A DNA stretch of 64,000 nt, from positions 274,682 through 338,681 of the forward strand of contig CAWHAG010000001.1 in NCBI GenBank assembly GCA_963827285.1, in the 5' to 3' direction. Under the pieces are notes generated by a model that was not told the origin of the DNA, made no database searches, and worked only from the letters and a program-made list of their open reading frames with translations. Source of the DNA: Ignavibacteriota bacterium. GTDB lineage: Bacteria > Bacteroidota > Ignavibacteria > CAWHAG01. Shown in pieces: positions 16,833-62,717 of the stretch (position 1 is the first letter of the stretch; each line of letters begins with the position of its first letter). The translations under genes and the position numbers were made by a program.

Positions 16833-16910
16833 GTGAGCGCCTGTCGCTTGCAGCGCCATCTGGAGCAAGACATAGACTCACAATCTTGCGCCATGGCGCC
16901 GAAGGCGCTC
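16833..16910. repeat. conserved intergenic element, copy 1 (GCGCCATGGCGC palindrome plus AGATGGCGCTGCAAGCGACAGGCGCTCAC core)
   Basis: A 29-nt block GTGAGCGCCTGTCGCTTGCAGCGCCATCT here is identical to the reverse complement of 62689-62717; both copies also carry GCGCCATGGCGC. Confidence 0.6.
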
Positions 16911-17037
16911 ATTCGATTTGGTGCCAGGAGGCTTTAGCATCACATCGTGGCACTCCGTGCCACTTCTGATTTCCATCTTCCTCATTGTAGGAAGAAGAAT
17001 GTCTTACCACGCCACTTTCAAGCTAGTCCAGAAGATT

Positions 17038-20000
17038 CTATTCCGTAATGTCCAGGCTCACCTCGTTAGCATTTCCTCTTACCTCTGGATAATACATCAG
17101 CGAGGCAAGCGATGGCATCACGTGGTAGTTTCCAGGAATCTGTGCACGAACGATGTAAGTAAAGGCATGTTCACCTGAATAGAAATATCGTGCAAAGAAC
17201 GCGACTTTCTCATCTCGCACGTCTCGCTCTTCCCACCACCATCGCCATCCATAATACTCGCCGCCGCTGTAGCCATCCTCATCTGCAATCTTGTATCCAT
17301 CTGTTTTCCGAATCACCTCGCAGCCTGAGGGCAGTGGATCTTCGAGCATGAAATATTCATAGTTGTCGTCAGAGTAAATGTGCAACTTTACGAAGATCTC
17401 GTCTCCTGACTTCACGGTCCCAGTGAAGGGCTGTTTCACATAGACGATCTCCTCACTCCTTCTCTGCTTCACAAGTTTGAAATACTCCCTTGTTACTTTG
17501 AATCCGGCACTCTTCGGCTGGATGTTTTCATCTGCTGAGTAATACATCACCCGGGAGGTGAAGTAAAGTTTCCCGTCGCCGTATTTTTCCACCCGAATCC
17601 GGTTTTCACCCTGCCTGAGCGAACGCCCGTTCACCTTCACGCGCGCCTCTTTAGAGAACACATCATCCTGTGTGACTTTCTTCTCCATGACCATCTGGTC
17701 ATTCACATACACTTTCGTTAGATAGTTCGGCTGAAGCTCCTTGCTGTTCTTCAAATAGTCCGCCAAGGCAAAGATGATGATTGCTGTCTGTCGCGTCGAG
17801 TTCCATGAGAACCCGTGCCGCTGACTCAATAGCCAGTGCACGCCCTTCCTGATGAGGTCGCTGTTGCCCTTCATTTCAATCAATGCCTTGAGTGCAAAGG
17901 CGGTGGTTTCAACAGCGTCGTCCTGCCAGTTGTAGTGCCAACTCTTGCCTGTCCAGTAAATCGCCGTTCCGGTGCTGGTAGTGCCGGCCTCCAGTTGATT
18001 AACAAGTGTCATCGCCGTCGCCTTGTCGCCTTGATGGTAACTTGCTAATGCCAGGAGCGACCGTGCATAGTTGTTAATACCCCTCGTATCGAACCGTGCC
18101 AACTGACCATCAATGATGGACTTCTCCAAAACCTTCTCTTGCTCATTGGCGAACGTCATCACGTAGATCACATACGCATGTGTCGTGGGGTCAAGTTTCA
18201 CTGTGCTCTCCAGGTGTCCCTTCAAGTTCCAGATCCCTTTCGAAATCACATTTTCAGGAATCTCGTAGTTGGCGCGCTTTGCAAGTGAGAGACCATAGAC
18301 GACGTATGCTGTCATAAACGGGTCAGACTGATCGTTTTCCCACCAGCCCCATCCTCCGTCTTCATGCTGGAAGTTGTAAAGTCGCTTCAAGCCTTTCTCC
18401 ACCATCTTCGGGATCTCTTTTTTCACATCCTCCGCTAATGGCACATTCAAGTCGCGCATCGTGTTTGCCACGATGACTGTTGGCAGGAATCTGCTCATTG
18501 TCTGCTCAACGCAGCCATAAGGATAACCTATCAAATCGTCAAGTGCACCAAGTATGCTCGAGGCAAGCGATGGAGAGATACTGACGTAGAACTGTGCGCT
18601 GCTCAAATCCACAGCTTGCGGGATATTCACGGTTGCTGTCTTGACCTCCCGATTTGCATCAATATCAATCACCTGCGCCTCCGCGATCTGCAATCCATGA
18701 GGCAACACCGGTACTTTCACTTCCATCGCATCGGATTCCTCGTTGGTGAGTGCCTTGGCTAACAGCTTGGCTTCACCAGGGCTGGAGGTTCTCACCTTCC
18801 AATCAATCTTCACCTCACCATTTCTTGGAACAGTTATGATCTTCTCAGTCCCCTCAACGTTAAGATTGGTTGCCGACAAACTGACTTTCGTTTGTTTGTC
18901 TTCGCTGAGGTAATTGTGCACGATGGTCGCAATCAGCAGTTCATCTTTCTGCATGAAGAATCTCGGCGTCTCCATCCGAACTATCAAGTTCTTGCGTGCA
19001 ATGACTCTGCTGATTTCACTGCCAACTTCCGTTTCTCTGGTCATGGCGCGAACGGTTGCTCGCCAGGTCGTCAAGTTGTCTGGATACTTCACTTGTACTT
19101 TGGCAATGCCGTTCCCATCCGTCACAAGTGTTGGCTGCCACAGCATCATATCCTTGAACTCTCGACGAGTCGCCGGTTCCATGAAGAGTTGCCCCTTGAC
19201 ATCACCAAGAGCGATGCGCTCTCGCTCCGATCTTGTTGCCATCAGTGGAGCTGCTTCACCCGCCTTCTTGTTGTCAGAGTATTCTTCTTTCCTCAGACCT
19301 CGAGAATAGCCGTAGAAGTTGAAGAACAGCGATGATGATGTCTGGACGGAGTTGTATCGTATGTTGTAGAAGAACTTTTTGATGTCCGTCGTTCTCTCGG
19401 GCGAGATCGCATACACGCTTTCGTCCACCACACCGACGGAGACTTCCGCATTGCGTACCGATCTACCGTTTTCGTCAGTGACCTTCACCGTCAACTCACC
19501 TTGATCCTGCGGCTTGTAGGTCTGCTTGTCATTCAGAATTTCGACGTTGAGAAACTTCTCCTGCGGGATAATGAGCACTCGCTTGCTCTGATTGTAAAAG
19601 TTGTCATTGAAGAGAGTCGAAACAGAGAGGTATATATTTGGACGATAGTTATCTTTCAATTTCACATCAATCACTTTAGAAACCCCATCAAATCGTTCGA
19701 CGTTCTGATCAAGAATGTCCTCACCTTCAACGGTCACCAGTGCGTCAATTCCAGAAGTCGGCAGCACGATCAGAGCATGCATTGTCTCGCCGGCAGTGTA
19801 ACTGTCTTTGTCGGGAATTATTTGAATCTTTGCGGATTCCTCCCCCCAGTACGCGTAGTAACGCTCGTCTGTGACATAAAGATAGCTGGTCTCATCAATG
19901 TAGTTGTTGCGCGAATCCCTTGCACTGACGACCAAGCGATAGTAGCCGTTCTCCTGTACTGAGAAGTTCACTGTGCCGCTGCCATCACGATTCGTCGCGC

Positions 20001-21840
20001 TGCTTAGAGTCATCACTTCCTGCTCGTGATGCTGATAGTTGTATCGCTTTACATTGTTATCCCAGTATTCTGTTCTATCCCACCACTGTCGGATGACCTT
20101 GACAGCGAAGTTTGCCATCACACCATTTTCCTTGAAATCTGCGATTCGTACCTTGAGTCGAACATCTTCCTTCGGCTTATAGACGTATTTATCCGTCTGC
20201 GAGGAAATATAGAACAGCCCTCGTGTCACCTCCACGCTCTTGGCACCTGAGATCGCCCTTCGGCTGTTATCTATGACATTCGCTTGAATGCGATAGACGT
20301 AGTCTTCTCTTGCCTTGACATCGGTATAGTAGGTGAGTTCGAACCTTCCGTTGTTGTCAACTTTCCCCGTGCCGCTATCGAGCAGTTCCTGACGATAGGT
20401 GTAATACTCTTCATCTTCTTCGTAATACCACGCATAATCTGTTCCCTTCCACCACGGACGCCAGTAGCGACTGCGATAGATATAATACTCAACGTCGGCG
20501 TTCGTCACAGGGCTACCAAAGTAATAGTCCGCCTTGACGGTCGCCTTGATAACATCACCTTTCGCGTAATGATCCTTGTCGAATGCAACTTCAACTTTGT
20601 ATTCTGGCTTCTTATATTCCTGGACTTCGAAGTTGTTAGTGTAAGTCCTATTCTCGACAACGGTTTGGATGTTGTAGAAACCCAGTGGTGGTTCCTCGGC
20701 AAGTCTCAGACTCCCATGGAAACTTCCAAACTCGTTTGTCTTCATTGAGTCTTTGTAGACGACACTGCCTCTCGAATCGGTGACGGTAATCTTCACAAGT
20801 TGATTTGGGAAATTCACCAACTGTCCTTCATCGTCTTTCTTTCTTACAATACCTTTGAAGAAGACATCCTGTCCTGGACGATACACGGGACGCTCGGTAT
20901 AGACGTACACATAATACCCCTGTTCTCTATCATAGGAGTAGTAATAAGGATCGGAGATGACAAGGTTTCCATCCTTGATACCCATTATCAGAATATTGCC
21001 GCCGCCGTATTCCCAGTCGAACTCTTCACCTTCCTCTTCAGTCGGAGTTGCTTGCTCTTTCTTTTCTATCGTTAGTGTATAGAGTCCTTTCTTGTCAGTT
21101 GTTCCTTTCCCAATCTTCTTATTCTTTTCATAGAAGGACAGTTCAAAGTCAGAAATCGGCTCACCGGTCTTCTTGTCCACGACATACGCAACCAATTTGG
21201 TTCCAGACCGTTTTGTGACCATCCCACACTTTGAGATCACCAGCATGGTGTAGGCAACTTTGTCAAGAGCTCTGCCCTCGACGAGATAGACACCAGCCTC
21301 TTTGATGTCTGCTCGCACCGTCTGGTAGTTCCACCATTCCTTTGTTTTGATAATCTGCTCCGTCCACTCCTTCACGATCTTGTAGCCCTCGAGTTCTTTG
21401 GGAACTTTCTGTTGCTCTTCAGCTGCCTTCTTTTCCTCCGCTTTTTCTATTCCTGCCATATCGCGGATGTTCACCCGGCTTTCGGCTTTCATGTAGGCGC
21501 GGGCAATCTGCCGAGCATCTCGCTGGATTTTGTTAGCAGCTTCACCGAAGATTTTGAAGATACTCGTCTCGTTGAGGCTTCTGAGATCTGGATGGTGCGG
21601 ATTCCTTTGCTTTTGGAAGAATTTGACAGGGTCGTCAATCTGATACACCCGAAGCTTAATGGTTCCTGAAAGATTATATGTCTCGAGTTGGAACGTGACC
21701 TCATCGCCGGGTGAGAACACTTTCGAGGTTGATAGGTAGAAGCTGTAATCTTTGTCCGCCACTCTCATGGCTGAAAGGAACAGGAGAGCAAACAGCGCAA
21801 GTGGCAGAACAACTCCTCTACGACTGATGATCTGTTTCAT
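17038..21840 (-). CDS. alpha-2-macroglobulin family protein (bacterial A2M, thioester-containing)
   Basis: 1600 aa, signal peptide; thioester motif YPYGCVEQT (CxEQ); size and architecture typical of bacterial A2M. Confidence 0.85.
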   Translation of the reverse strand: MKQIISRRGVVLPLALFALLFLSAMRVADKDYSFYLSTSKVFSPGDEVTFQLETYNLSGTIKLRVYQIDDPVKFFQKQRNPHHPDLRSLNETSIFKIFGEAANKIQRDARQIARAYMKAESRVNIRDMAGIEKAEEKKAAEEQQKVPKELEGYKIVKEWTEQIIKTKEWWNYQTVRADIKEAGVYLVEGRALDKVAYTMLVISKCGMVTKRSGTKLVAYVVDKKTGEPISDFELSFYEKNKKIGKGTTDKKGLYTLTIEKKEQATPTEEEGEEFDWEYGGGNILIMGIKDGNLVISDPYYYSYDREQGYYVYVYTERPVYRPGQDVFFKGIVRKKDDEGQLVNFPNQLVKITVTDSRGSVVYKDSMKTNEFGSFHGSLRLAEEPPLGFYNIQTVVENRTYTNNFEVQEYKKPEYKVEVAFDKDHYAKGDVIKATVKADYYFGSPVTNADVEYYIYRSRYWRPWWKGTDYAWYYEEDEEYYTYRQELLDSGTGKVDNNGRFELTYYTDVKAREDYVYRIQANVIDNSRRAISGAKSVEVTRGLFYISSQTDKYVYKPKEDVRLKVRIADFKENGVMANFAVKVIRQWWDRTEYWDNNVKRYNYQHHEQEVMTLSSATNRDGSGTVNFSVQENGYYRLVVSARDSRNNYIDETSYLYVTDERYYAYWGEESAKIQIIPDKDSYTAGETMHALIVLPTSGIDALVTVEGEDILDQNVERFDGVSKVIDVKLKDNYRPNIYLSVSTLFNDNFYNQSKRVLIIPQEKFLNVEILNDKQTYKPQDQGELTVKVTDENGRSVRNAEVSVGVVDESVYAISPERTTDIKKFFYNIRYNSVQTSSSLFFNFYGYSRGLRKEEYSDNKKAGEAAPLMATRSERERIALGDVKGQLFMEPATRREFKDMMLWQPTLVTDGNGIAKVQVKYPDNLTTWRATVRAMTRETEVGSEISRVIARKNLIVRMETPRFFMQKDELLIATIVHNYLSEDKQTKVSLSATNLNVEGTEKIITVPRNGEVKIDWKVRTSSPGEAKLLAKALTNEESDAMEVKVPVLPHGLQIAEAQVIDIDANREVKTATVNIPQAVDLSSAQFYVSISPSLASSILGALDDLIGYPYGCVEQTMSRFLPTVIVANTMRDLNVPLAEDVKKEIPKMVEKGLKRLYNFQHEDGGWGWWENDQSDPFMTAYVVYGLSLAKRANYEIPENVISKGIWNLKGHLESTVKLDPTTHAYVIYVMTFANEQEKVLEKSIIDGQLARFDTRGINNYARSLLALASYHQGDKATAMTLVNQLEAGTTSTGTAIYWTGKSWHYNWQDDAVETTAFALKALIEMKGNSDLIRKGVHWLLSQRHGFSWNSTRQTAIIIFALADYLKNSKELQPNYLTKVYVNDQMVMEKKVTQDDVFSKEARVKVNGRSLRQGENRIRVEKYGDGKLYFTSRVMYYSADENIQPKSAGFKVTREYFKLVKQRRSEEIVYVKQPFTGTVKSGDEIFVKLHIYSDDNYEYFMLEDPLPSGCEVIRKTDGYKIADEDGYSGGEYYGWRWWWEERDVRDEKVAFFARYFYSGEHAFTYIVRAQIPGNYHVMPSLASLMYYPEVRGNANEVSLDITE

Positions 21841-22222
21841 AAAGCACCTTGGCTTTAGTAGAGTTCATGGCAGTTTCTGTTTTTATACTGGATTTGCAGT
21901 GCGACTTCTAAATCGCTGCTTTAGAAGCGAGATAAATCTTGCGCTACGATCTATCGAAACTTGCTCAACAGAGTAGTGGTTTCTGTCTTGTACACTTGTT
22001 ATATGTCCGTTAAGAAGGTTATGTTCCTAAAGGGGAAGCGAAAAGGCAAGGCACAGTTAGCCAAGGACCTACTATGGGCTGAAGCGTTGTAGGACGAGCT
22101 TCAGCTCGTCGTGCGACATGAATGTCGCGCTTCATCCTTTTCCGCAAAAGGTGTTAATGTCTGAGTTATCCCGGCTTGTCAGGCTTGGGAACTCGCAATG
22201 ACAGGTTCTTTTCCGGTCACCC

Positions 22223-23110: not shown

Positions 23111-23113
23111 TCT

Positions 23114-25069
23114 CTATTTGCTGATGATCATTTTGTTTGTTTCAGTGAAACCCTTTGCCGACAGACGATAGAAGTACACACCGCTGGATAGAATGTCGAA
23201 TGTTCCCGCAAAGCGGGATCGAATATCGAATGTCACACGGTAGTTTCCAGGATTTTTTTCTTCATTTACCAAGGTTGCCACTTCTCTTCCAAGCACATCG
23301 AAGACTTTCAGCGTCACGTGTTCGCGCTGTGGAAGTGAGAAACGAATCGTGGTGGCAGGATTGAAGGGATTCGGATAATTTCGTTCAAGCCGATAGCCTT
23401 GCGGCGCCATGGGCAGAGATTCTTTCACGCTTGTGATGGCCGTCGTTGACAGCAAAACCCGAGATGGACAACTCGCATCGTGATAAATACAATTCGTCGC
23501 GACAAGCGTATCGCCTGGTTTGTAAAGAACACCGCCATTATTCAGGTTGATATCAAAACGTGGGTAGTCCGATGAACTCACATCAATCCGCAACTGGTGT
23601 CCCTTCAGAAACGTCATTGCAAGATTTTGCAGTTCAGTCGTCACAGGATATATTTGCCCGGGTGTCATTAAATCTTCCACACTGTACGAATTGCGGAAGC
23701 GCATTCGTCTGATACCAGCCGTCAGAATCATGGAGCGTCCGTCGGGGTACACATCGCACAAACGTACACCGAAGTCTGTATCTTTTCTGTTGGATGACAC
23801 ATAGAGTCGAACTTCTGTTGCTCCGTCCACCATCAAATCATTTTGGAGAACCGGAGTGGTGTACGTGAGAACATCGCTGCGGCTTTCAACACGCTGTCGC
23901 TGGTCGAGCGGTCCACCCTGAACCGACGGGTCAAACGGATTAAATCTCACACCGCCGTAAGAGGGTGTAGGATCGCGCGGATTGTACCTCAACGAATCAG
24001 GTGTGGCACTCTGTGGTGGTGCAGCTCGTGATAACAAGCCGCCCGATTGCAGATACAACGTATCCGTTGCACCGCCGAGCGAATACCAATCGCTTGTTGA
24101 GCGCCATTCATCTGTTCCCATCTGGTAGTAGCGTATAGTCGGGTTTTGGTCGTACCCGCTCTGCATGTTCCGCAGATAGTAATCAAAGAAACGCATTGCT
24201 GCGGTATCAGAGATCCCAACGGCGTTCGGATACTCTAACTCTCCTTGCTTCGATTTTCCTATTTCTGAATGCATCCAGGGACCGATAATGAATTTGTGCT
24301 TCGAGCGAACTGATGGTGCACTTCTCGCTTTAAGATCATGAAAAGCACGAATCACATCATCAGGATAATGGTCGTACCATCCACCAATCAGAAGCATGGG
24401 TACGGCAATCGAATCGGGATAATCCGAACTTGTCTCGAGGAGCCTCCACATCGGATTATATGATGGGTTTGCTAATATGAACTCCGTCGGGAGAAACCCG
24501 AGTCTTTCCATCGTCTCATTGTGTTCCTTCAGGTAATCGCCACCATAATAAAAATTCGAGTACGCAATTTTATAATCTTTCACCAGCGGCATACTGCAGA
24601 CAAGATGCGGCGGATGGTGTTTGGCTGTCTGAAACTGAATGAGACCCAGAGCGGACGGTCCCCACGTACCGACTTTGCCATTGCACCACCGCCGATATGC
24701 TATCCATTCAACGGCATCGTAGCCATCCAAGCCTCTATCGTAGCCGGATACATCCGCATCCTTCGAGCCGTAGAATCCACGCCAATCAACAACTACGCAA
24801 TTGTAATGCACACTGTCGTAAGGAAACGATGAGCCGCCTGCTTCCGGCAGACCAACTCTGATGCGATAATAATTTTTGTTGTATGGTGTCTGGACGAGGA
24901 TGACGGGCTTTGCTGCAGTGGTGTCAAGGGAATATAGATCAGCCGCAAGAACTTTTCCATCACGGGTCGGAATCGTGATGGGAATGTAACGCGCTGTATC
25001 TTGAGCGAACATCCTGGAACCGAGCGTTGTTATAAGACAGACGATCAGATAATAAACTGTGATTTTCAT
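23114..25069 (-). CDS. CocE/NonD-family hydrolase (S15 Xaa-Pro dipeptidyl-peptidase-like) with T9SS C-terminal sorting domain
   Basis: 651 aa, signal peptide; YNCVVVDWRGFYGSKD region; C-terminal ERNYPNPFNPATTIRFSLP...VFDVLGREVATLV...GVYFYRL...KMIISK is a T9SS CTD. Confidence 0.7.
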   Translation of the reverse strand: MKITVYYLIVCLITTLGSRMFAQDTARYIPITIPTRDGKVLAADLYSLDTTAAKPVILVQTPYNKNYYRIRVGLPEAGGSSFPYDSVHYNCVVVDWRGFYGSKDADVSGYDRGLDGYDAVEWIAYRRWCNGKVGTWGPSALGLIQFQTAKHHPPHLVCSMPLVKDYKIAYSNFYYGGDYLKEHNETMERLGFLPTEFILANPSYNPMWRLLETSSDYPDSIAVPMLLIGGWYDHYPDDVIRAFHDLKARSAPSVRSKHKFIIGPWMHSEIGKSKQGELEYPNAVGISDTAAMRFFDYYLRNMQSGYDQNPTIRYYQMGTDEWRSTSDWYSLGGATDTLYLQSGGLLSRAAPPQSATPDSLRYNPRDPTPSYGGVRFNPFDPSVQGGPLDQRQRVESRSDVLTYTTPVLQNDLMVDGATEVRLYVSSNRKDTDFGVRLCDVYPDGRSMILTAGIRRMRFRNSYSVEDLMTPGQIYPVTTELQNLAMTFLKGHQLRIDVSSSDYPRFDINLNNGGVLYKPGDTLVATNCIYHDASCPSRVLLSTTAITSVKESLPMAPQGYRLERNYPNPFNPATTIRFSLPQREHVTLKVFDVLGREVATLVNEEKNPGNYRVTFDIRSRFAGTFDILSSGVYFYRLSAKGFTETNKMIISK

Positions 25070-25383
25070 TCTATCACGACCATTGATTTTTGTTGGACAT
25101 ATTCACCGTCGCGAAGTTGATAAAGATATACACCGCTGGATAGAATGTCGAGTGTCGAATAACGAATGTCGTATGTCGCACGATAGTTCCCAGGACTCTT
25201 TTCTTCACTTACCAGGGTTGCCACTTCTCTGTCCAATACATCAAAGACCTCGAGAGAAACAGATGTAGAATTCGGGACTCGAAATTTGTCATTGGATTGA
25301 AGGGGTTTGGATAGTTCTGGGATAGCCGATGGTTGCTCTCTGTCATCCGTGTGGATAGCACTTCCACGATGGAACTGATTCAA
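25066..25383 (-). pseudogene. orphan T9SS C-terminal-domain remnant (frameshifted, no catalytic domain upstream)
   Basis: ORF encodes ...VSLEVFDVLDREVATLVSEEKSPGNYRATYDIRYSTLDILSSGVYLYQLRDG...; QNYPNPFNP is in a different frame just upstream and preceded by a stop; DNA is clearly related to the 3' end of the adjacent S15 gene (23141-23300). Confidence 0.6.
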
Positions 25384-34066: not shown

Positions 34067-34194
34067 TCTGCATCTTCGACTGTTCTCGACACTTTCTGTT
34101 TTTAATGCCAACAAATGTAACAAAAAAATGCGAGTTATGCAAGTTTTTTCACCCCCTTGCTTCCCAACAGATTATTTCGTAAATTTGCGTCGTC

Positions 34195-38569: not shown

Positions 38570-38884
38570 TTGGCACTTGCCGCTATGGGGGAGCTTTGGA
38601 TTCCGCCGGTTAATTCAAGCGACCTACGGGATAGAAGCAAGGGAGCGGAGAGGTTATTCATTTGTACTTTGTGTGTAGAGTTAAGCAGAGGTTGTCCCCA
38701 TGAGAGATGCAGCGCGAAATGTCATGCTGCATGATGTGAAGTATCGTCATTCGCGATGTTGCACGGGCTGATTCAGAATCGGGAACTGAGCCTGTCCAGG
38801 GACCATGGGAACGCCTTCAAACAGCTACAGGATTGTCGGCTTCAGATTCTTTTTGGGTTATTGACAGACAGGGGAAAGCCTTCC

Positions 38885-41830: not shown

Positions 41831-41966
41831 ATCAGTCGTGCTCTATTCACTCAAGGAGGGTGTGTGAATCTTGCTATCGTCTAATTCAAGATCTGACGGT
41901 GCCCTTTGGTCTAATTGCGCATTGGACTCTATCGCTTACATAATTAGGATTAGGAGAATCTTGGAA

Positions 41967-44867
41967 ATGAAAAACCGTTTGCTCATCGTTGTCTTACTTC
42001 TGGTTGGCATAAGCTATGGATTTGCACTGGCGACTCGTCCTCATTCCTCTAAGCAGACGGCAACAATAGCATCCTTTGGCAGCACACACAAGCAGTTGTC
42101 CGAGAAGAATTATCTTCCCAATGTTGTTGTCGTCAAATTCAAATCTGCGATCAGCCAGGCGCTTGGGAAAACGTCAGTTGATGAGCCTTCATTGAGTTTC
42201 ATCTTCAAGAAATTCTCTGTCAACAGCACGCAGCGGATGTTCCCTGACCACGATAGAGCGCCAACATCACCTGAGCGGGTTGATCTATCGAGATTCTACG
42301 AGATCCATTACTACGGCAACTATGATCCAGTGAATGTTGCGAGAGAGTTTGCCAAGGAAGCCGTGGTCGAATATGCCGAACCTTACTACATTCACAAATT
42401 AGCTTATGTCCCAAACGATCCGGCATACACAGGAGGTACTCAATGGTACTTGAAAACCATTCAAGCTGAACAGGCGTGGAATATCACCCAGGGGGATACC
42501 AGTGTTGTAATTGGTATTGTGGACACGGGCGTGGATTGGACTCACCCGGACCTTGCTGCTAATATCTGGGCAAATCCTAAACCCGGCTGGAATCCTAATT
42601 TTCCCAATGATGTTCGTGGATGGGATTTTGGCGGCTTGAACGGTACACCGGACAATGATCCGAATGAAGACCGTCCTGACCATGGAACAGGCGTTGCCGG
42701 TGTGGCATCTGCTGTGACGAACAACGGAATTGGCATCGCCGGCATTGGATTCAGATGCAGGATTATGGCGGTGAAAGTCGCTCAAGATGATCAAAGAGAT
42801 GTTTATGGCAATCCGTACATTGTCTATGGATTTCAGGGGATTGTCTATGCGGCTGATAATGGTGCCTCCGTAATCAACTGCAGTTGGGGTGGGGAAGGTT
42901 ATTCTCGCTATGAGCAAGAGGTCATCAACTACGCGTGTGAGAAAGGTGCCTTGGTGGTTGCCGCGGCTGGAAACGATAACACCTCAGTGATGTTCACACC
43001 TGCCGGGTATAACCACGTGCTGGCTGCTGCCGCAACCGATTCTCGTGACCGTAGAGCAGTCTGGCTCAGCGGTCAAGCGTCGAACTACGGAGAGTGGATT
43101 GATGTCTCTGCCCCCGGCTCAAGTATCTATATGACGTGGAAAGGCAATCAATATACGTACAACTCAGGAACCTCGTTTTCCAGTCCACTGACTGCAGGTG
43201 TCGCAGCATTGGTGAAATCATTGCATCCTGCCTGGACGCCAGATCAAATCGCCGAACAAGTCCGAGTCTCTGCCGACAAGATTGACTCGCTCAACACCGG
43301 ATACGCTGGGAAACTTGGCTTTGGGAGGATCAACGCCTATCGTGCTTTGACGGTTGTCTCTCCGGCAGTTAGGATTTCATCCTCCTCAGTGAGCGATTCT
43401 ATTGGCGGAAATAATGATGGCGTTGTTGATCCAGGAGAGACAATTCACATCACGCTCACACTGAAGAATCTGCTTGCCCCAACAACCAATGCGACGATTC
43501 GCTTCAGCTCGACAGATTCGAGTGTCAGGATTCTTGACGGAGATGTTTTCCAGGCAGGCAAGCTCTTGACACTGCAAGAGACTGATAACAAATCCCGTCC
43601 ACTTATTGTGCACGTTGCTAACACGGTGCCAGAAAATCACTATGTGAATTTCACGGCGAACATTTCCGATGGTGACTACAATGATGTCGCAACATTCAGA
43701 ATCCTCGTGCGACCGACGTTCGAGGATCACAACACTGATATCGTAACAATGACGGTTTCCAGCAAAGGAACGCTTGCATTCAATGATTATCCCACTAATC
43801 TTCAGGGAAGTGGCTTTACTTTCAAGGATAGATTTGAGAATCTTCTCTTTGAAGGCGCTTTGATGATAGGGATCAGCAGCACGCAAGTCTCAAACGCAGC
43901 GCGAGATGAAACCGGCAATCAGCAGTGCGATCATTTTGTCCCACTTCAATCCTTCAAGATAAGAAGTCCGGGCACTGTTGCTGATCAGGAAGGATTGTCA
44001 GTTCTGAATGATGACGGTGCGGGAAGAAGCACGATCGGCGTTCGCGTCACGCTGAAGAGTTACGCATTCAAGGACCCGCCTAACGATGGTTATGTCCTGC
44101 TGAGATATCTTCTCGAGAATACGACAGCCTCCAACATCTCAAACCTGTACGCTGGATTGTTTCTCGATTGGGATATCGGTCCAGACGGGGCAAACAATCA
44201 GGCTGACTACGATGGAGAACATAACTTGGGGTATGTCTATAATGTCAAGCGTACTGTGAAGACGTACTGCGGTGTAGCGTTGATGAGCAGCACCGCTTCT
44301 GTCGGTTATTGGGCGATTGATAATGACCAAAGCACTCCGGGTGCTCCATGGGGTATCTATGATGGATTCACCATCGCAGAAAAATGGCAAGCGCTGAGCA
44401 GCGGTGTCGGGAGGACTCCAAGCAGCGTTGGAGATGTCTCTCAAGTTCTCTCAACAGGACCACTGACGATCGCACCCGGGAAGACAGTCGAAGTTGGATT
44501 TGCTGTGTTAGGTGGAGACACCTTGTCTGATATGCAAGCCAACGTAGAGGTGGCGCTGAGAAAATGGAAGCAGATCACCCTTGAAGATATTAATACTGTT
44601 CCCGAGGAATTCGCACTTTATCAAAACTATCCAAATCCATTTAACCCGGCGACAACAATCATCTACGATTTGCCTTCGGACAACTTCGTGAGTCTGAAAG
44701 TGTATGATCTGCTCGGACGGGAAGTGGCAACATTGGTCAGCGAACGTCAGAAGGCCGGACGCTATATTAGAGAGTTCACGAGCAGCACGCTCTCGAGCGG
44801 TGTGTATTTCTATCGCCTGGAAGCAGGAGGATTTGGTGAGGCGAGGAAGATGTTGATCATCCGATAG
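41967..44867 (+). CDS. S8 subtilisin-family serine peptidase, tandem paralog, with T9SS C-terminal sorting domain
   Basis: Colinear with the upstream S8 gene (DTGVDWTHPDL, HGTGVAG, GTSFSSPLTAG); C-terminal LYQNYPNPFNPATTIIY...GVYFYRL. Confidence 0.85.
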   Translation: MKNRLLIVVLLLVGISYGFALATRPHSSKQTATIASFGSTHKQLSEKNYLPNVVVVKFKSAISQALGKTSVDEPSLSFIFKKFSVNSTQRMFPDHDRAPTSPERVDLSRFYEIHYYGNYDPVNVAREFAKEAVVEYAEPYYIHKLAYVPNDPAYTGGTQWYLKTIQAEQAWNITQGDTSVVIGIVDTGVDWTHPDLAANIWANPKPGWNPNFPNDVRGWDFGGLNGTPDNDPNEDRPDHGTGVAGVASAVTNNGIGIAGIGFRCRIMAVKVAQDDQRDVYGNPYIVYGFQGIVYAADNGASVINCSWGGEGYSRYEQEVINYACEKGALVVAAAGNDNTSVMFTPAGYNHVLAAAATDSRDRRAVWLSGQASNYGEWIDVSAPGSSIYMTWKGNQYTYNSGTSFSSPLTAGVAALVKSLHPAWTPDQIAEQVRVSADKIDSLNTGYAGKLGFGRINAYRALTVVSPAVRISSSSVSDSIGGNNDGVVDPGETIHITLTLKNLLAPTTNATIRFSSTDSSVRILDGDVFQAGKLLTLQETDNKSRPLIVHVANTVPENHYVNFTANISDGDYNDVATFRILVRPTFEDHNTDIVTMTVSSKGTLAFNDYPTNLQGSGFTFKDRFENLLFEGALMIGISSTQVSNAARDETGNQQCDHFVPLQSFKIRSPGTVADQEGLSVLNDDGAGRSTIGVRVTLKSYAFKDPPNDGYVLLRYLLENTTASNISNLYAGLFLDWDIGPDGANNQADYDGEHNLGYVYNVKRTVKTYCGVALMSSTASVGYWAIDNDQSTPGAPWGIYDGFTIAEKWQALSSGVGRTPSSVGDVSQVLSTGPLTIAPGKTVEVGFAVLGGDTLSDMQANVEVALRKWKQITLEDINTVPEEFALYQNYPNPFNPATTIIYDLPSDNFVSLKVYDLLGREVATLVSERQKAGRYIREFTSSTLSSGVYFYRLEAGGFGEARKMLIIR

Positions 44868-45777: not shown

Positions 45778-46080
45778 GATTGTGTGAACATTCACTGCGG
45801 CAATCGTCGGTAAGCTGCAGAACAGATTTCAGCAGATATGCTGGTTGTCCCGCGGAGCGGGATTCCGCTACCGCGGAACAGATTACCGGTTGGTGCTGGA
45901 GAGATCTGATGACCTGTAACCCGAAATCTCTCTCATCATTCACATACATTTCCGTCGGAGGTGGATAAGTGGCGCAAAGTGGTGCTTTTCAGCATCATGG
46001 TGCGTGGCAGTCACTCCATGGCGTTACAGGCGCTGACCTCTGACTTAAATCTAAGAACAACATAGGAGAACGATAACGAA

Positions 46081-52640: not shown

Positions 52641-52671
52641 CACAGGTGTGTGTTCCCAACCGAGAGACTAC

Positions 52672-52744
52672 GGGGCTATAGCTCAATTGGGAGAGCGCCT
52701 GCCTTGCACGCAGGAGGTTATCGGTTCGATCCCGATTAGCTCCA
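52672..52744 (+). tRNA. tRNA-Ala (anticodon TGC)
   Basis: GGGGCTATAGCTCAATTGGGAGAGCGCCTGCCTTGCACGCAGGAGG...; G3-U70 identity pair present. Confidence 0.9.
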
Positions 52745-52805
52745 CTGGGAGAGCGTGGCGCCGTTAGGCGCCAAGGTAGTCGGTTCAAGCGCGATTAGCT
52801 CCACA
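52745..52805 (+). other. tRNA-Ala-derived fragment (D-loop and 3' acceptor retained, anticodon arm replaced by GGCGCC hairpin)
   Basis: CTGGGAGAGCG...GGTTCAAGCGCGATTAGCTCCAC parallels the tRNA-Ala 3' two-thirds immediately upstream; no 5' acceptor strand. Confidence 0.5.
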
Positions 52806-53186
52806 AAGAGTGATTGGTTAGGGAAGCAATATTTGTCATATCAGATTTGGTTGCGCTGATAGGTGTTATCATTGCGGTGCGGGATACTTACACCTTGCGC
52901 AAGGAGAAAAAAGCAAAAAGGGTTTAGTTTGATATAAGAAATAGGGTAGGCGATTCTCGCTTATCATCCAAAAGTGTTCTTTGACAATTGAGAAGAGTTC
53001 ATCAGCTTCGAGGTAAGTAGTTGTGGCGCATTTGGCGCCATAAATTCTGCCCATGGTGCCACGAACAAACATCTTGAAGTTTGATGACTGCAAAGAAAGA
53101 CCTAGCAGTATTTCCGTAGTATTTGTTGATGCACCGAGTCCGATTCCCAATCGGACCAGACTATCTGTGTATCAATAAAGATTTTT

Positions 53187-56267
<3,081 letters not shown>

Positions 56268-56348
56268 TAATCTTTATTGATATCAGATGGTGGTGCATCA
56301 ACAAATGGTTCGGAAGTAACTCTTCTCGATTGTCTAAACGTTAGAATT

Positions 56349-56466: not shown

Positions 56467-56515
56467 ATTCTCTTTTTCCACCAACCCACGGAATTCTCAA
56501 AGGAGGGAAGGTCAC

Positions 56516-57094
56516 ATGAAACGTCTCTCTGTGGTTGTTGCCTTCTTAGCGATTCCCCTGCTGTATCCTAACCTGCACGCTCAAGAGAATATCTCTACGA
56601 CGCAGTCAATCTCTCTGCAACCAATCTTCTGGATTGAGAGCGTGCTTCCAAGAGAATGGATAGGGGTTTCAGGTCAGTATGAGTTGGGTGTTGCAGTGGA
56701 TAGGAGCTTAACGTGGAGGATGTTCTGGCTTCGTATGGCACGGATGGCATTCGGGGATTTTACAGGACTCGAAGCAGTTGGCATATCCGCCGAGTATCGT
56801 ATTTATCTAGAGGACGATCTTCAGGGATGGCACCTCGGTCCCTTTGTGGAAGGCTCTCGGTGCGGGTGGCGCGCATACGGTGGAGGTGTCTTTGGCAATT
56901 ACGCCAAGAATGTATTTGATTTTGGCATACAGGCTGGGCACAAGTGGATCTCAAAACACCACGTCTCCTTTGATATTTCTGTGAGAGCAGCATGGTTCAG
57001 TCATTCGGTGGAAAGAGGCTATGCCACATTTCTGCCTAGAGGTGATTTCGAACCGAACGGACACCTGCTCGTGAGCATCGGATACGCTTTCTAG
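56516..57094 (+). CDS. hypothetical small outer-membrane beta-barrel-like protein
   Basis: ATG preceded by AAGGAGGGAAGG RBS; signal peptide MKRLSVVVAFLAIPLL...AQ; ends GYAF; about 192 aa. Confidence 0.6.
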   Translation: MKRLSVVVAFLAIPLLYPNLHAQENISTTQSISLQPIFWIESVLPREWIGVSGQYELGVAVDRSLTWRMFWLRMARMAFGDFTGLEAVGISAEYRIYLEDDLQGWHLGPFVEGSRCGWRAYGGGVFGNYAKNVFDFGIQAGHKWISKHHVSFDISVRAAWFSHSVERGYATFLPRGDFEPNGHLLVSIGYAF

Positions 57095-57875
57095 CTGATC
57101 CGTAGCTGGCAGTCGCGAGTATGTAAATCATATTGCTTAGACTTGACAATCGTGTTCTTACCACGCCGGAAAGGAACAGGATATCACATGCGAAATCCCT
57201 TCATAGAATTCCACCCTTGTCTCTCACCTTCATAGAAGAGAGTCTCCTTGTCGAACTGATCTAGCAGTCGAATCAATCATGAAACATCAAGGTCAAGTTC
57301 CAACCTCGCAGTGATCTCACTTCTCACGCTCGCTCATCTTATCCTCGAGAGTCTCTCCACATCAATCCATCTATTCTCAGAGCAATCAGCCTCATTCCAA
57401 AACTCAGTTTCCAAGAATGAATTCCATTGTGAATGCTGGTGTCATTCCAAGGAGGTCCATCTGCAAATCTTACCAATGACACCGAAATATTTACCTGGGA
57501 AATCTGAACGAAAAAGAATTCGCCAAAGAAATCCAAACGGTGCTTAGTTTTTGCTAAATCCGGGGGATCAGATATCAACTTGAAAGCGAAGAGAAAATGG
57601 TACGATGATTGCATACGATAAATTAGTGGAACTCTCTCTAGTGGTGGACTTCCCATCAAGATTTGTCGGAATCAAAAGGATGAACATTTAGTTCTACGAT
57701 TCAAAGGGAAAGGCCAGTTCGTGGGTCCTCTGAATCAAGTCCCCAGGGTGAGCTTTCGCTTCGCATGACATGATGCACAACACCACTTGAAACCAGTCAT
57801 CTACAGAGCGGCCAAGAACTTCATTGACAAATCGTCTCGGCGTTCTTCCATCCATCAAGGTTGGGACGTGACACA

Positions 57876-60800
57876 ATGCTGAAACAACTCCTTCGTTTCA
57901 TAGCCAGTCTCGAACTCATACTTATCGTTGGCGCGACGCTGAATGCTGGATCTCTGATCCCCCCTCGGCACTTGGGTGAACTGTCAAGTCTAAGCGATGC
58001 AGCACTATTGGGGAGAGCGAGAGCATCTCGCGTTGTGAAACATGGTTCACTTTTGTTCACCCGGACATCTTTCGAGGTGTTGGATGTGATGCGGGGATCT
58101 GTGCGGAAGGGTGATAGCGTTTGTGTTGAGACTCCCGGAGGGGCGGGGGATGGTGTGGCTTGGTTGGTGCTCGGTTCGCCGCGATTCTTGGAGGGGCAAG
58201 TTTATCTCCTATTCCTAAATCGCAAATCCCCTGATGTGTGGCAGCCGCGTATGCTCTCGTATGGATTGCTGCAGCGCGTTAGAGGTCGCGATGGCACAAA
58301 TCTTCTTGTTCCACTTGCTGAGAGAGACGGACTTCAGCCCTTTCCACGTCCAGATGGAGTTGTCCCCGAGCCCGTTGGTATCTACCGAGAGAAGATGCTC
58401 CTCAGCCATCTGACACAAGTCGTGCGAGGAGAAATCCGGTGGAACTCGAAGGCTGTACTAGCACCCAGCGAGGTGATACCTACAGAAGCGTTGCAGGTGT
58501 TGGCTCCACCTTCTCAGTGTGCGTTCATGAATTATGGAGGTCTGAACATAAGGTGGAACGTGTTCGATGGTGGCGGACAGGTCACTGTCAGTGCTAATGC
58601 GACTGGAGACAACTCTCTTCCTGGAGGTGGCTTCGCAGAGGTGCAAGGGGCTGTCTCGGATTGGATGAGCGTTCCTAACACCACCATCAACCTCGGCTAC
58701 GGGGGTGCCATGAGCTACGCCATGACCTGTACCGGAAATCAGGACACGCCCGCCTCTGGTGTCAACATAGTAATGTTCAACGACCCATGCTCGGATATTC
58801 CTGATCTTTCAGGCTGCACTGGGACGCTGGCATTCGGTGGACCATGGTTCGGCGGCACACACACGTTTGATGGCGCTACGTGGTACTCTATTCAGAGCTG
58901 CTTTGTCGTGGTGAACAACGGTGTAGGTTGTCTGGGTAGCGCCAACTACCGGCGAATGATAGCTCACGAGTTGGGCCACGGTTTGGGCTTTGGTCACTTC
59001 AGCGACCCCAATGCTCTCATGTATGCCTACTGCTGCAACTCTATCAGCTCGACGGACATAACGTGTGCACAATACCTTTATCCCGTGGTGCTTTCAGCAC
59101 CTTCACTCTTGTCTCCATCAGATGGTGGGACAGATGTTTCAACGAGCCCGACGTTGAGTTGGAACGCTTCCAGCGGTGCGACTTCGTATCGGTTGCAGGT
59201 TTCGACCAGTTCAGGCTTCGCGACAACAGTGTATGATCAAAGCGGAATTACGGGTACTTCTCAGGCTGTGACAGGTCTTTCAAACAATACGATGTATTAC
59301 TGGCGAGCGAACGCGACTAACGCTGGAGGGACAAGCGCTTGGTCCAGCATCTGGAGTTTCACTACAGCGGGTGGCGTGACTCCGTCACCTCCAGTGCTTG
59401 CCTCCCCCGCAAATGGTGCAACAAGTGTTTCAACGAGTCCGACATTAAGCTGGAACGCCGCGAGTGGCGCGACATCATATCGGTTGCAGGTGTCAACAAA
59501 TTCAAGTTTCTCGTCAACGGTGTTTGATCAAAGTGAAATCACAAGCACTTCTCAGGTGGTGACAGGTCTATCGAACAATACGATGTATTACTGGCGAGTG
59601 AACGCCACTAATACTGCAGGGACAAGTGTCCGGTCTAGTGTATGGAACTTCACAACGATTGCTGGCGTACCGTCAGCACCAACGCTTGCTTCACCTTCCA
59701 ATGGTGCAACAGGAGTATCAACAAGTCCGACCTTGAGTTGGAATGCTTCGAGTGGAGCGACATCCTATCGCCTGCAGGTCTCTACAAGTTTAAGTTTTTC
59801 GACAACAGTGTTTGATCAGAGTGAGACAACTGGAACATCGCGGCTCGTGAGTGGGCTATCGAATAACACCATCTACTACTGGCGAGTGAACGCAACTAAT
59901 GCTGGAGGGACAAGCGGTTGGTCTGGCATGTGGAGTTTCACAACGACGGGTGGGGTCGCTCCCTCAACACCAATGCTTGCCTCGCCGGCAAATGGTGCGA
60001 CTGGAGTCTCAACAAGTCCGGCATTGAGTTGGAACACTTCTAGCGGTGCGGCTTCGTATCGGCTGCAGGTTTCCATGACTTCTGGTTTCGCGACAACAGT
60101 GATAGACTCCGGTGGAATAGTGGGAACGTCAGTCTTGTTGAGCAGTCTTGTCAACAACACTACCTACTTCTGGCGTGTAAATGCGACAAACGCTGGAGGG
60201 ACAAGCGATTGGTCTAGTGTGTGGAATTTCACAACGACTGTGGCAGCTCCCTCGCCGCCAACTCTTGCCTCTCCGTCAAATGGTGCAACTGGAGTCTCAA
60301 CAGGTCCGACATTGAGTTGGAACACTTCTAGCGGTGCGGCTTCGTATCGGCTGCAGGTTTCCATGACTTCTGGTTTCGCGACAACAGTGATAGACTCCGG
60401 TGGAATAGTGGGAACGTCAGTCTTGTTGAGCAGTCTTGTCAACAACACTACCTACTTCTGGCGTGTAAATGCGACAAACGCTGGAGGGACAAGCGATTGG
60501 TCTAGTGTGTGGAATTTCACAACGACTGTGGCAGCTCCCTCGCCGCCAACTCTTGCCTCTCCGTCAAATGGTGCAACTGGAGTCTCAACAGGTCCAACAT
60601 TGACTTGGAACGCTTCCAGCTCTGCAACTTCGTATCGGCTGCAGGTTTCCATCACTCCTGATTTCGTGACGACAGTGATAGACTCTGGTGGAATGGCAGG
60701 AACATCAGTCATGCTGAGTAGTCTTGTCAACAACACCACTTACTACTGGAGAGTGAGTGCAACAAACGTTGGAGGAACAGGCGCCTGGTCAAGCGTCTGG

Positions 60801-62585
60801 AGCCTCACAACCATTGTGGGACCCCCATCACCGCCTCTACTCGTTTCTCCTTCGGACGGCGCGATCGGTGTTTCGACGAGTGAGACGCTAGTCTGGAATG
60901 GCTCAGCGAATGCTGCATCATATCGCCTGCAGGTTTCCATCAATCCAGATTTCTCGGAGATCTCGTTCGATCAAAGCAGCATCGCGAGTACTTCGCAGGT
61001 CGTAACTGGACTTTCAAACAACTCAGCATATTACTGGAAGGTGAATGCGGTGAATGCTGGTGGAACTAGTATCTGGTCAAACGTCTGGTCTTTCACAACC
61101 ATGCTTGCTCCACCAATTCTCGCCTCACCTTCAGATGGTGCGACGGGTGTTTCAACTGATCCAACACTGACCTGGAGCAGATCCAGCGGTGCGACATCGT
61201 GTTGGATACAAATCTCCACCAGCGCAGACTTCTCTTCTCTCATCATCAACCAGAGTGGAATCCCGCTTCCGCTGTACAAGGCGAACAGTCTATCCAGTAA
61301 CACAACGTATCATTGGAGGGTTAATGCAGGAAATGCAGGAAGAACAAGTGTCTGGTCGAGCGTCTGGAGTTTCACGACGGTTGTAGCGGCTCCATCAATC
61401 CCGAGCCTTGCATCTCCATCGAATGGTGCTGCAGGTGTCTCCACAAATCCCACCTTGGATTGGAACGCCTCATCAGGTGCAACATCATATCGGCTGCAAG
61501 TTTCCACCAGTTCTCATTTTGAAACGACGGCCACTGACACGAGCGGGATTCCGGGAACGTCAGTCCGGACCAATGGCTTAGCCAACCATAGGACATACTA
61601 TTGGAGACTGAGCGCGACGAACGTAGGGGGAACGAGTGATTGGTCATCCGTGTGGGATTTTATGACCACCAACAGGGCGCCCAAACTCATTCTCGGTGCT
61701 TACGACACCACGATCAATCAAGGTGAACTTCTAAGCTTCAGCGTTGCAGCGGCAGACTCGGATTACGACCCATTGGCGTTCACGGGGTTCAATCTCCCAC
61801 CAGGAGCTACGCTTGATTCACTCAGTCCCACAAGTCGGGTGTTCGACTGGACACCCACGTACACCCAAGAGGGAGTCTTCAGCAACATCAAGATCGTTGT
61901 CTCCGATGGTGATTCATCAGACAACGCACAGTTTACGATCACTATCAGGAAAGTGAATAGAGCTCCAGCACGGTTCGCTCTTGTATCTCCGACATCAGGA
62001 GATACAGTCGCACTGACGTTTCCATCCAAACCGATTGTCTTTCGTTGGCACAAGTCAATAGATCCGGACGTTTCAGATACAGTCAGGTACTCGCTGCGTG
62101 TAACGGGTTCAGGATTCGATGACATGGTGGCTAATATCAAGGATACGACCGTGTTGCTCGATATCATGTCCCGCCTCAAGAACTCAAGCATTTACTTGTG
62201 GTATGTGGTTGCTACCGACGGACAGCTTGCATCAAACTCGGATTCTGCCACCTTCAGAACATCCTCAAGAGTCACGGGCATGCCTGACAACGTCAAGAAG
62301 ATGCCGACAGAATTTGCGTTACATCAAAATTATCCCAATCCGTTCAATCCATCTACAGAGGTTGTTTTCGCCGTTCCAAACCGGTGTCGTGTGAAGATAG
62401 ACATCTTCAGCGTTCTGGGCAACGTAGTATGTGAAATGACAGATGCAGAGTACCCGGCGGGTGTTTATCGTGTGCGATGGAACGGGCAAAGCACATCAGG
62501 AGCTGCGGTTTCAAGCGGTGTCTATTTCTATCGGATGATAACTGAGACTGGAGTGTTCACTAAAAGAATGGTTTTGCTGCGATGA
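57876..62585 (+). CDS. giant secreted metzincin-like zinc metalloprotease with nine tandem Fn3-like repeats, cadherin/Ig-like domains and T9SS C-terminal sorting domain
   Basis: HELGHGLGFGH (HExxHxxGxxH) followed by ALMY Met-turn; nine units of about 96 aa (SP.NGATGVSTSPTLSWNASSGATSYRLQVS...YYWRVNATNAGGTS.WSS.W.FTT); C-terminal FALHQNYPNPFNPSTEVVF...GVYFYRM CTD. Track ORF starts at a TTG (57861). Confidence 0.8.
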   Translation: MLKQLLRFIASLELILIVGATLNAGSLIPPRHLGELSSLSDAALLGRARASRVVKHGSLLFTRTSFEVLDVMRGSVRKGDSVCVETPGGAGDGVAWLVLGSPRFLEGQVYLLFLNRKSPDVWQPRMLSYGLLQRVRGRDGTNLLVPLAERDGLQPFPRPDGVVPEPVGIYREKMLLSHLTQVVRGEIRWNSKAVLAPSEVIPTEALQVLAPPSQCAFMNYGGLNIRWNVFDGGGQVTVSANATGDNSLPGGGFAEVQGAVSDWMSVPNTTINLGYGGAMSYAMTCTGNQDTPASGVNIVMFNDPCSDIPDLSGCTGTLAFGGPWFGGTHTFDGATWYSIQSCFVVVNNGVGCLGSANYRRMIAHELGHGLGFGHFSDPNALMYAYCCNSISSTDITCAQYLYPVVLSAPSLLSPSDGGTDVSTSPTLSWNASSGATSYRLQVSTSSGFATTVYDQSGITGTSQAVTGLSNNTMYYWRANATNAGGTSAWSSIWSFTTAGGVTPSPPVLASPANGATSVSTSPTLSWNAASGATSYRLQVSTNSSFSSTVFDQSEITSTSQVVTGLSNNTMYYWRVNATNTAGTSVRSSVWNFTTIAGVPSAPTLASPSNGATGVSTSPTLSWNASSGATSYRLQVSTSLSFSTTVFDQSETTGTSRLVSGLSNNTIYYWRVNATNAGGTSGWSGMWSFTTTGGVAPSTPMLASPANGATGVSTSPALSWNTSSGAASYRLQVSMTSGFATTVIDSGGIVGTSVLLSSLVNNTTYFWRVNATNAGGTSDWSSVWNFTTTVAAPSPPTLASPSNGATGVSTGPTLSWNTSSGAASYRLQVSMTSGFATTVIDSGGIVGTSVLLSSLVNNTTYFWRVNATNAGGTSDWSSVWNFTTTVAAPSPPTLASPSNGATGVSTGPTLTWNASSSATSYRLQVSITPDFVTTVIDSGGMAGTSVMLSSLVNNTTYYWRVSATNVGGTGAWSSVWSLTTIVGPPSPPLLVSPSDGAIGVSTSETLVWNGSANAASYRLQVSINPDFSEISFDQSSIASTSQVVTGLSNNSAYYWKVNAVNAGGTSIWSNVWSFTTMLAPPILASPSDGATGVSTDPTLTWSRSSGATSCWIQISTSADFSSLIINQSGIPLPLYKANSLSSNTTYHWRVNAGNAGRTSVWSSVWSFTTVVAAPSIPSLASPSNGAAGVSTNPTLDWNASSGATSYRLQVSTSSHFETTATDTSGIPGTSVRTNGLANHRTYYWRLSATNVGGTSDWSSVWDFMTTNRAPKLILGAYDTTINQGELLSFSVAAADSDYDPLAFTGFNLPPGATLDSLSPTSRVFDWTPTYTQEGVFSNIKIVVSDGDSSDNAQFTITIRKVNRAPARFALVSPTSGDTVALTFPSKPIVFRWHKSIDPDVSDTVRYSLRVTGSGFDDMVANIKDTTVLLDIMSRLKNSSIYLWYVVATDGQLASNSDSATFRTSSRVTGMPDNVKKMPTEFALHQNYPNPFNPSTEVVFAVPNRCRVKIDIFSVLGNVVCEMTDAEYPAGVYRVRWNGQSTSGAAVSSGVYFYRMITETGVFTKRMVLLR
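59110..61670 (+). repeat. intragenic tandem repeat, nine units of about 288 bp (coding Fn3-like modules)
   Basis: Periodic antisense ORFs (59876-60160, 60164-60448, 60452-60739) and near-identical protein units; units 4 and 5 (about 60030-60300 and 60318-60588) look identical over roughly 270 bp by eye. Confidence 0.8.
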
Positions 62586-62668
62586 GACGAGAGTTCTGGT
62601 TGAGAGGGGGAATCTCGAACGTTCCAAGTTCTGTGAGGCAAGGTGCAAGAAGTCAGAGGTGGTGCGAA

Positions 62669-62717
62669 GCGCCATGGCGCCACATCGAAGATGGCGCTGC
62701 AAGCGACAGGCGCTCAC
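62669..62717. repeat. conserved intergenic element, copy 2 (inverted relative to copy 1)
   Basis: GCGCCATGGCGC at 62669-62680 and AGATGGCGCTGCAAGCGACAGGCGCTCAC at 62689-62717; same orientation relative to the upstream gene as copy 1. Confidence 0.6.

Follow-up and report, generated by a model that had tools for sequence, protein, structure and literature searches.

A hairpin-forming intergenic element shared by an alpha-2-macroglobulin gene and a metzincin gene in an Ignavibacteriota genome

Two copies of an intergenic element

We analysed a 64-kb stretch of contig CAWHAG010000001.1 from an Ignavibacteriota bacterium (hereafter the window), in which a short element recurs behind two large genes, one encoding an alpha-2-macroglobulin (A2M) family protein and the other a metzincin metalloprotease. 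The element is real and not a product of chance, forms hairpins, and lies in a 3′ intergenic position behind both genes. The A2M gene, an open reading frame (ORF) at 17038-21840 on the minus strand, encodes 1600 amino acids (aa) with A2M/MG2 Pfam domains, and the metzincin gene, at 57861-62585 on the plus strand, encodes 1574 aa with Peptidase_M10, fn3 repeats, and a type IX secretion system (T9SS) sorting tail; both assignments had been made in an earlier reading of the DNA letters alone (the sequence-only reading), and the domain content bears them out. Copy 1 lies between ORFs within the intergenic interval 16726-17037, and copy 2 does so within 62586-63009. The genes downstream of the two copies are unrelated to each other, one being esterase-like with a signal peptide (copy 1) and the other encoding a BNR-like T9SS protein (copy 2). 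Export signals were found on the metzincin and on the products of both downstream genes, and export of the A2M-family protein is assumed.

The sequence-only reading had proposed that a 29-nt block is duplicated, and the block GTGAGCGCCTGTCGCTTGCAGCGCCATCT is present exactly at 16833-16861 (+) and at 62689-62717 (-), so that the copies stand inverted on the chromosome about 45.8 kb apart. No third match to this 29-mer was found in the window when up to 3 mismatches were allowed, with 0 expected in 100 shuffles. The 12-nt palindrome GCGCCATGGCGC, which had also been placed at both sites, was found there at 16888-16899 and 62669-62680, and allowing 1 mismatch added no further site in the window (0.17 expected). 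Both copies have the same orientation relative to their upstream gene, as had been stated, and the distances given for them (about 130 and 85 nt) agree with our measurement that the palindrome begins 138 nt past the A2M stop codon and 83 nt past that of the metzincin. Measured toward the next gene, the 29-mer lies 108 nt (copy 1) and 293 nt (copy 2) before the downstream start codon; the distances to neighbouring genes differ between the copies both upstream and downstream, and the 29-mer is separated from the palindrome by 26 nt in copy 1 versus 8 nt in copy 2.

Read in the sense of the A2M gene, copy 1 (16833-16912, minus strand) consists of a left arm, the palindrome, a 26-nt spacer with an apical stem of its own, and the 29-nt right arm, and can be written as aTGAGCGCC-TTCG-GCGCCATGGCGC-(26 nt)-AGATGGCGCTGCAAGCGACAGGCGCTCAC. 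Its right arm (16833-16861, +), an exact match, divides into GTGAGCGCC-TGTCGCTTGCA-GCGCCAT-CT, and its short left arm (16893-16912, -), identified by a unit-pattern match and by model alignment, into ATGAGCGCC-TTCG-GCGCCAT. In copy 2 (62657-62717, plus strand), read in the sense of the metzincin gene, the left arm, GTG(GTGCGA)AGCGCC, is degenerate and directly joined to the palindrome, after which come the 8-nt spacer and a right arm identical to that of copy 1; the copy as a whole can be written as GTG(GTGCGA)AGCGCCATGGCGC-(8 nt)-AGATGGCGCTGCAAGCGACAGGCGCTCAC. The two blocks common to the copies, 13 and 29 nt in length, are identical at 42/42 positions. The spacers between them differ by an 18-nt indel and agree at approximately 4/8 of the remaining positions, and the flanks show no relation at all. 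A segment that had been duplicated recently and then decayed neutrally would not show such identical blocks beside a diverged spacer, which indicates constraint on the blocks and freedom to vary in the spacer.

The left arm of copy 1 is the inverted right arm, shortened by 7 nt. When each block was allowed up to 1 substitution, a unit pattern of GTGAGCGCC-N(0-15)-GCGCCAT recovered both arms of copy 1. In addition, a sequence model derived from the two copies matched the reverse strand of copy 1 (E=0.002), which identifies copy 1 as a quasi-palindrome.

Folding, termination, and further candidate copies

The pairing of GCGCCAU with AUGGCGC that the sequence-only reading had put forward was predicted by folding in both copies, and a stem of (A/G)GCGCCAU paired with AUGGCGCU is the sole one that they have in common. 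Copy 1 was predicted to fold into a single long imperfect hairpin (-43.9 kcal/mol, z -3.1). Copy 2 reached -25.6 kcal/mol with a z of -1.5, not above shuffled sequence, and its z became +0.2 when the flanks were included. A shared RNA fold was thus not supported, since the copies fold differently, copy 2 is no stabler than its shuffles, and the two strands fold equally. The spacer region containing copy 1 (16726-17037) holds four hairpins, namely, those at 16976-16995 and 16947-16963, the element itself, and one at 16770-16819; the region as a whole gave -114.4 kcal/mol on each strand and a z of -4.7 on either strand. This equal folding of both strands indicates that the signal is that of a DNA-level palindrome rather than of a strand-specific RNA structure.

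Termination had been offered as a function for the element, and in its canonical form this did not hold. Neither copy has a U-tract, whereas hairpin-plus-U terminators are present elsewhere in the window: a survey of all of its 3′ regions located canonical ones after 11986, 36016, 44867, and 47241. On the gene-sense strand, where the tails read TGCATTTACAGG and AGAATCCAGAAG, neither copy yielded a terminator-like call, and a perfect hairpin (16947-16963) already stands between the A2M stop codon and copy 1. The element therefore does not qualify as an intrinsic terminator of the canonical kind; transcripts could, all the same, be protected or punctuated by a stable 3′ stem-loop. No promoter-like site was detected at either copy.

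A degenerate candidate for a third copy was noted at 45978-46047 (+), in the intergenic space between surE and pfk and with the polarity of its flanking genes. It reads GCATCATGGTGC, a 14-nt spacer, and ATGGCGTTACAGGCGCTGAC followed by CTCTGACTT. The palindrome GCATCATGGTGC carries a two-sided change, G3-C10 to A3-T10, the arm ATGGCGTTACAGGCGCTGAC is the short form, and the unit pattern also matches 46018-46037 (-). The 11-mer AAGTCAGAGGT at 46037-46047 is common, in inverted orientation, to the left flank of copy 2. This candidate was the best non-self match of the model of copies 1 and 2 (aligned end to end, over model positions 6-89, at 6.9 bits and E=0.49), and its local alignment score of 25-26 falls inside the null range. 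The unit pattern alone is expected by chance 0.2-0.3 times per 64 kb, and the joint two-strand score, 51, was equalled or exceeded in 4 of the 27,745 null windows, or about 0.15 expected per window. As a third copy, therefore, the stretch is statistically weak and suggestive only. A Logan contig spanning 45978-46047 is 99.975% identical to the window; it represents the same strain and is uninformative on conservation.

The sequence-only reading had linked the element to large secreted cargo. This link was not supported, since three other genes with T9SS tails (23114-25069, 38756-41830, and 41871-44867) are without the element, and the best further candidate copy sits between surE and pfk, which, if it is real, breaks the link.

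Two other stretches of the window bear some likeness to the element. The sequence GCCTTGCGGCGCCATGGGCAGAGATT at 23395-23421 (+) resembles the left part of copy 1 (24/27 with gaps; score 33 versus a null maximum of 32) and, lying inside an S15 peptidase coding region, is probably either chance or a relic. An 88-nt GC-rich imperfect palindrome at approximately 1870-1957 (-38 to -44 kcal/mol), in the spacer between convergent genes for an inositol monophosphatase and a histidine kinase, contains GATGGCGCC and is otherwise unrelated to the element.

Conservation and surrounding genes

Searches of large collections returned no copy of the element. The core of the 29-mer (23-mer) had 0 exact matches in the 185,579 species genomes of GTDB and the 241 M metagenome records of JGI, collections that may not include the source genome, and a 20-mer core had 0 exact matches in IMG/VR viral contigs. 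No BLAST match to the 106-nt copy 1 region was found in plasmids or phages. Rfam gave no match at gathering score, and at E<=10 the two spacers yielded only chance snoRNA and small RNA (sRNA) matches, all outside the element. A literature search on the palindrome returned cloning primers only.

Among 1.68 Mb of Ignavibacteria/Bacteroidota-type loci from relatives, the 29-mer (with up to 6 mismatches) and the palindrome occurred only in L034, a JGI contig of 1884 nt that comprises the 3′ end of the A2M gene, the spacer, and an intact esterase gene and is the sole close relative compared. No element was found beside the homologues of A2M (<=55% identity), of the esterase (66-75%), or of the metzincin C-terminus (53%, on contig L037). 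Upstream of the esterase homologues with 75% and 66% identity lies tRNA-Leu instead of A2M, indicating that the A2M-esterase adjacency is not conserved.

The comparison with L034 revealed strong constraint around copy 1. Synonymous sites of the flanking coding sequence differ at 10% (pS 0.083-0.132, with pN about 0.017; proportions of synonymous and nonsynonymous differences, respectively). In the 312-nt A2M-esterase spacer 6 positions differ, where pS would predict 31 (P about 2e-8); its 304-nt interior shows 3 differences, and the 79-nt element shows 0, against 7.8 expected (P about 3e-4); the 198-nt spacer downstream of the esterase gene shows 8. A single C-to-U change in L034 at the base of the stem is tolerated on either strand. 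The boundaries of the low-divergence tract coincide with the gene ends, which argues, in this one pairwise comparison, that copy 1 and the whole four-hairpin spacer are under purifying selection. Judged by its divergence and folding, the A2M-esterase spacer may by itself be a structured regulatory or noncoding RNA region.

The 45.8 kb between the copies contains cysS, a recN-like gene, rplS, trmD, rimM, rpsP, ffh, rlmN, adk, surE, and pfk, together with two amino-acid permease genes and a complete rRNA operon. None of the 37 window ORFs scanned against Pfam encodes a recombinase or transposase. A mobile island bounded by the 29-mers was ruled out by this housekeeping content and by the lack of a recombinase or transposase among the scanned ORFs. 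Gene orientation and GC skew flip near 34.2 kb, and the copies share their polarity with the genes and with the local skew, which is uninformative at two copies. The flip from minus to plus orientation falls between ffh and rlmN, at approximately 34124-34194, together with a cumulative GC skew minimum; its polarity is origin-like, yet the spacer measures only 71 nt and there is no dnaA in the window.

Several features of the neighbouring genes were noted in passing. A 1-nt insertion at 16362 breaks the esterase-like gene (15825-16725, -), which carries the motifs HG and GHSGG, into two ORFs, whereas the intact orthologue (P0124, on L034) has 299 aa, so the split gene would be either a pseudogene or an assembly error. 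The metzincin gene contains nine tandem fn3-type repeats of 288-291 nt each at 59094-61667, among which 60147-60236 is identical to 60435-60524 (within the 90-nt segment listed per repeat), and this identity suggests recent repeat expansion or collapse. A 105-aa ORF at 25066-25383 (-) duplicates the T9SS tail of the S15 peptidase (23114-23400) with 76-86% nucleotide identity in three blocks and is, on this similarity, an orphan C-terminal-domain fragment; L037 has a similar stray tail fragment behind its metzincin homologue. In the 16S-23S spacer, a 44-nt stretch (52774-52817) located behind tRNA-Ala matches, at 75% identity, that tRNA's 3′ end together with adjoining downstream sequence (52715-52758) and looks like a partial tRNA duplicate. 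The glycerate kinase ORF at 285-728 (-) covers profile positions 1-144 of 372, and the gene appears to be truncated or frameshifted.

Interpretation and comparison with known systems

We favour, with about an even chance of being right, the interpretation that the element is a lineage-specific intergenic palindromic repeat resembling repetitive extragenic palindromes (REPs), bacterial interspersed mosaic elements (BIMEs), and the REP doublets called REPINs, and that its transcript forms a 3′ hairpin. We take the features of REPs, BIMEs, and REPINs as they were defined previously (PMC3116915, PMC3337134), and a pattern of conserved arms with a free spacer has been described for REPINs (PMC3116915). 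The two copies would then come from a small family of such intergenic repeats that is particular to this lineage, with a unit that is a GC-rich imperfect palindrome of roughly GTGAGCGCC-loop-GCGCCAT. Two such units opposed across a variable spacer would allow the DNA strand or the transcript to fold as a long hairpin, and sites after stop codons are the usual place of accumulation for repeats of this kind. Transcribed from the upstream gene, each copy would yield a stable 3′ stem-loop that may slow 3′-to-5′ decay or hinder read-through to the next gene. This interpretation implies past or present dispersal by a REP-type mechanism, further copies elsewhere in the genome, and an effect on RNA that would consist of 3′-end protection or termination; the pairing with the A2M and metzincin genes would be a coincidence.

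Various observations led us to this interpretation. The exact blocks occupy unrelated intergenic contexts 45.8 kb apart, their arms are conserved while the spacer is free and varies in length, and in copy 1 two related arms form an inverted doublet. Both strands fold equally without a U-tract, there is no Rfam family and no counterpart in other lineages, and the distances to genes vary, with a plausible degenerate third copy between housekeeping genes.

On the other hand, several points weigh against a REP-like origin. REPs are defined by high copy number, with tens to hundreds of copies per genome, and the gene for their cognate REP-associated tyrosine transposase (RAYT, a Y1 transposase) is usually flanked by REPs; the 64-kb window, the only sequence of the source genome that was analysed, holds just two secure copies, the third not being significant at its E value of 0.49, and no RAYT was found among the Pfam-scanned ORFs. 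Degeneration of the left arms leaves copy 1 as the only convincing doublet. No direct repeat of at least 6 nt, and so no target-site duplication, flanks copy 1, and the 9-nt direct repeat AGAAGTCAG that flanks copy 2 (62648-62656 and 62733-62741) does not abut it, lying 12 to 16 nt from the copy's ends; 30/2000 shuffles reach this length, and the repeat is related to the 11-mer AAGTCAGAGGT. The strongest argument for a host-level function comes from the comparison with L034, in which the whole 312-nt spacer, not the element alone, is 5-fold more conserved than synonymous sites. A selfish repeat accounts for constraint of this kind no better than a role in the host does.

Such a function might be that of a host-selected cis-regulatory module, in which the 29-nt box and the palindrome are read by one protein or sRNA that coordinates the metzincin with the A2M inhibitor or with the downstream secreted hydrolases. 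We regard this as possible but rather doubtful, although the strong constraint seen in L034 leaves it an appreciable probability. The blocks are identical even in their loops while the spacer is free, the copies have the same gene-relative polarity, and divergence from L034 is low (0/79 and 6/312 differences versus a pS of 0.10). The pairing of a protease with an antiprotease is biologically suggestive as well, and the metzincin and both downstream products have export signals, with export of the A2M-family protein assumed. However, the other T9SS cargo genes of the window are without the element, as are the A2M, esterase, and metzincin homologues of other lineages, and the candidate third copy flanks surE and pfk. 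The distances to flanking genes vary, the fold is inconsistent between the copies, no promoter-like site accompanies them, and a shared polarity is a coincidence to be expected half of the time with two copies. It appears unlikely that the module couples protease and antiprotease output in this lineage of the Fibrobacterota-Chlorobiota-Bacteroidota (FCB) group with the conserved four-hairpin A2M-esterase spacer as part of the control region, and a dedicated regulatory link between protease and inhibitor has little support. A little less likely still is that the copies are two ordinary terminators or 3′-end stabilisers that came to share sequence by copying or gene conversion and belong to no wider family. 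Both do follow a stop codon with a GC-rich hairpin in the gene-sense RNA, and complex GC-rich hairpins are frequent behind the genes of the window, but the lack of a U-tract at both copies, the perfect hairpin that precedes copy 1, and the ordinary stability of copy 2 relative to shuffled sequence are all unfavourable, and plain duplication fails to explain 42/42 identical block positions beside a spacer that is approximately 50% diverged.

An identical block inside otherwise unrelated RNAs, and the highly conserved and structured surroundings of copy 1 (z -4.7), would also fit sibling sRNAs, or sRNAs derived from 3′ untranslated regions, with a common 29-nt seed region. This is very unlikely, as no promoter-like and terminator-like sites bracket the copies consistently, no complementary target in the window goes beyond chance 9- to 15-mers, and Rfam gave no match. 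The perfect 29-bp inverted repeats that flank the 45.8-kb segment might be taken for recombination sites inverting it, or for the ends of a large mobile element, but a segment that holds ffh, rpsP, trmD, rplS, cysS, adk, pfk, and the rRNA operon, the lack of a recombinase or transposase in the Pfam-scanned ORFs and of flanking target duplications, and a palindrome at variable distance that is left unexplained make this highly improbable. We give even less credence to small protein genes. An ATG in the palindrome opens a frame of 42-44 codons through the 29-mer (MA...RWRCKRQALT), the frames are of similar length in both copies, and the 18-nt indel preserves them. Beyond the repeat, however, the two peptides show no relation to each other, both L034 substitutions within the frame are nonsynonymous, and 0/10 small ORFs were found in a collection of 15 billion proteins, with a representative search giving low-complexity matches only. 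Two further candidates were rejected. A miniature inverted-repeat transposable element (MITE) was dismissed because copy 1 has no target-site duplication and the 9-nt repeat at copy 2 is non-abutting, and a repeat of the clustered regularly interspaced short palindromic (CRISPR) type, which would occur as a regularly spaced array of direct repeats, each 28-37 nt long, was dismissed because there are two inverted copies 45.8 kb apart and no array.

If the element is indeed a REP-like repeat, it would be routine genome furniture, useful mainly for annotation and strain typing, and would add one REP/REPIN-like family from an Ignavibacteria/Bacteroidota-related lineage that has been poorly sampled and for which such repeats have been little described. 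If it is specific to these loci instead, it would be of more consequence, as a small cis-element common to both genes would then link a secreted protease with a protease inhibitor, and the constrained A2M-esterase spacer might represent a new regulatory RNA region.

Among known systems, intrinsic (Rho-independent) terminators share with the element a GC-rich stem-loop in the gene-sense RNA past the stop codon, but the element has no U-tract, its hairpin is far longer and branched, and copy 1 is preceded by another hairpin. MITEs, e.g., the Correia/NEMIS elements, are short noncoding intergenic repeats with inverted ends and internal length variants. The element is likewise a short noncoding intergenic repeat with inverted ends and length variants, although it lacks an abutting target-site duplication, its terminal inverted repeats are imperfect, and no parent insertion sequence was seen. 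In the BIMEs of Escherichia coli, alternative linker motifs lie between two REPs in inverted orientation; located after genes, these elements act as 3′ stabilisers of mRNA and as binding sites for proteins (IHF, gyrase, and Pol I). The element has no sequence relation to them and was not seen in tandem arrays, but it resembles them in its inverted palindromic units, its variable linker length (8 versus 26 nt), and its location after genes. It differs from REPs and REPINs in being present in two, perhaps three, copies in the 64-kb window, in its short or degenerate left arm, in the lack of a RAYT among the Pfam-scanned ORFs, and in its host, an uncultured Ignavibacteria/Bacteroidota-related member of the FCB group rather than a proteobacterium. 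With REPs and REPINs, on the other hand, it has in common an extragenic location, GC-rich imperfect-palindrome units, the arrangement, clear in copy 1, of two such units in inverted orientation around a less conserved spacer, a hairpin predicted for single-stranded DNA or RNA, near-identical arms in distant copies, and a lineage-restricted sequence.

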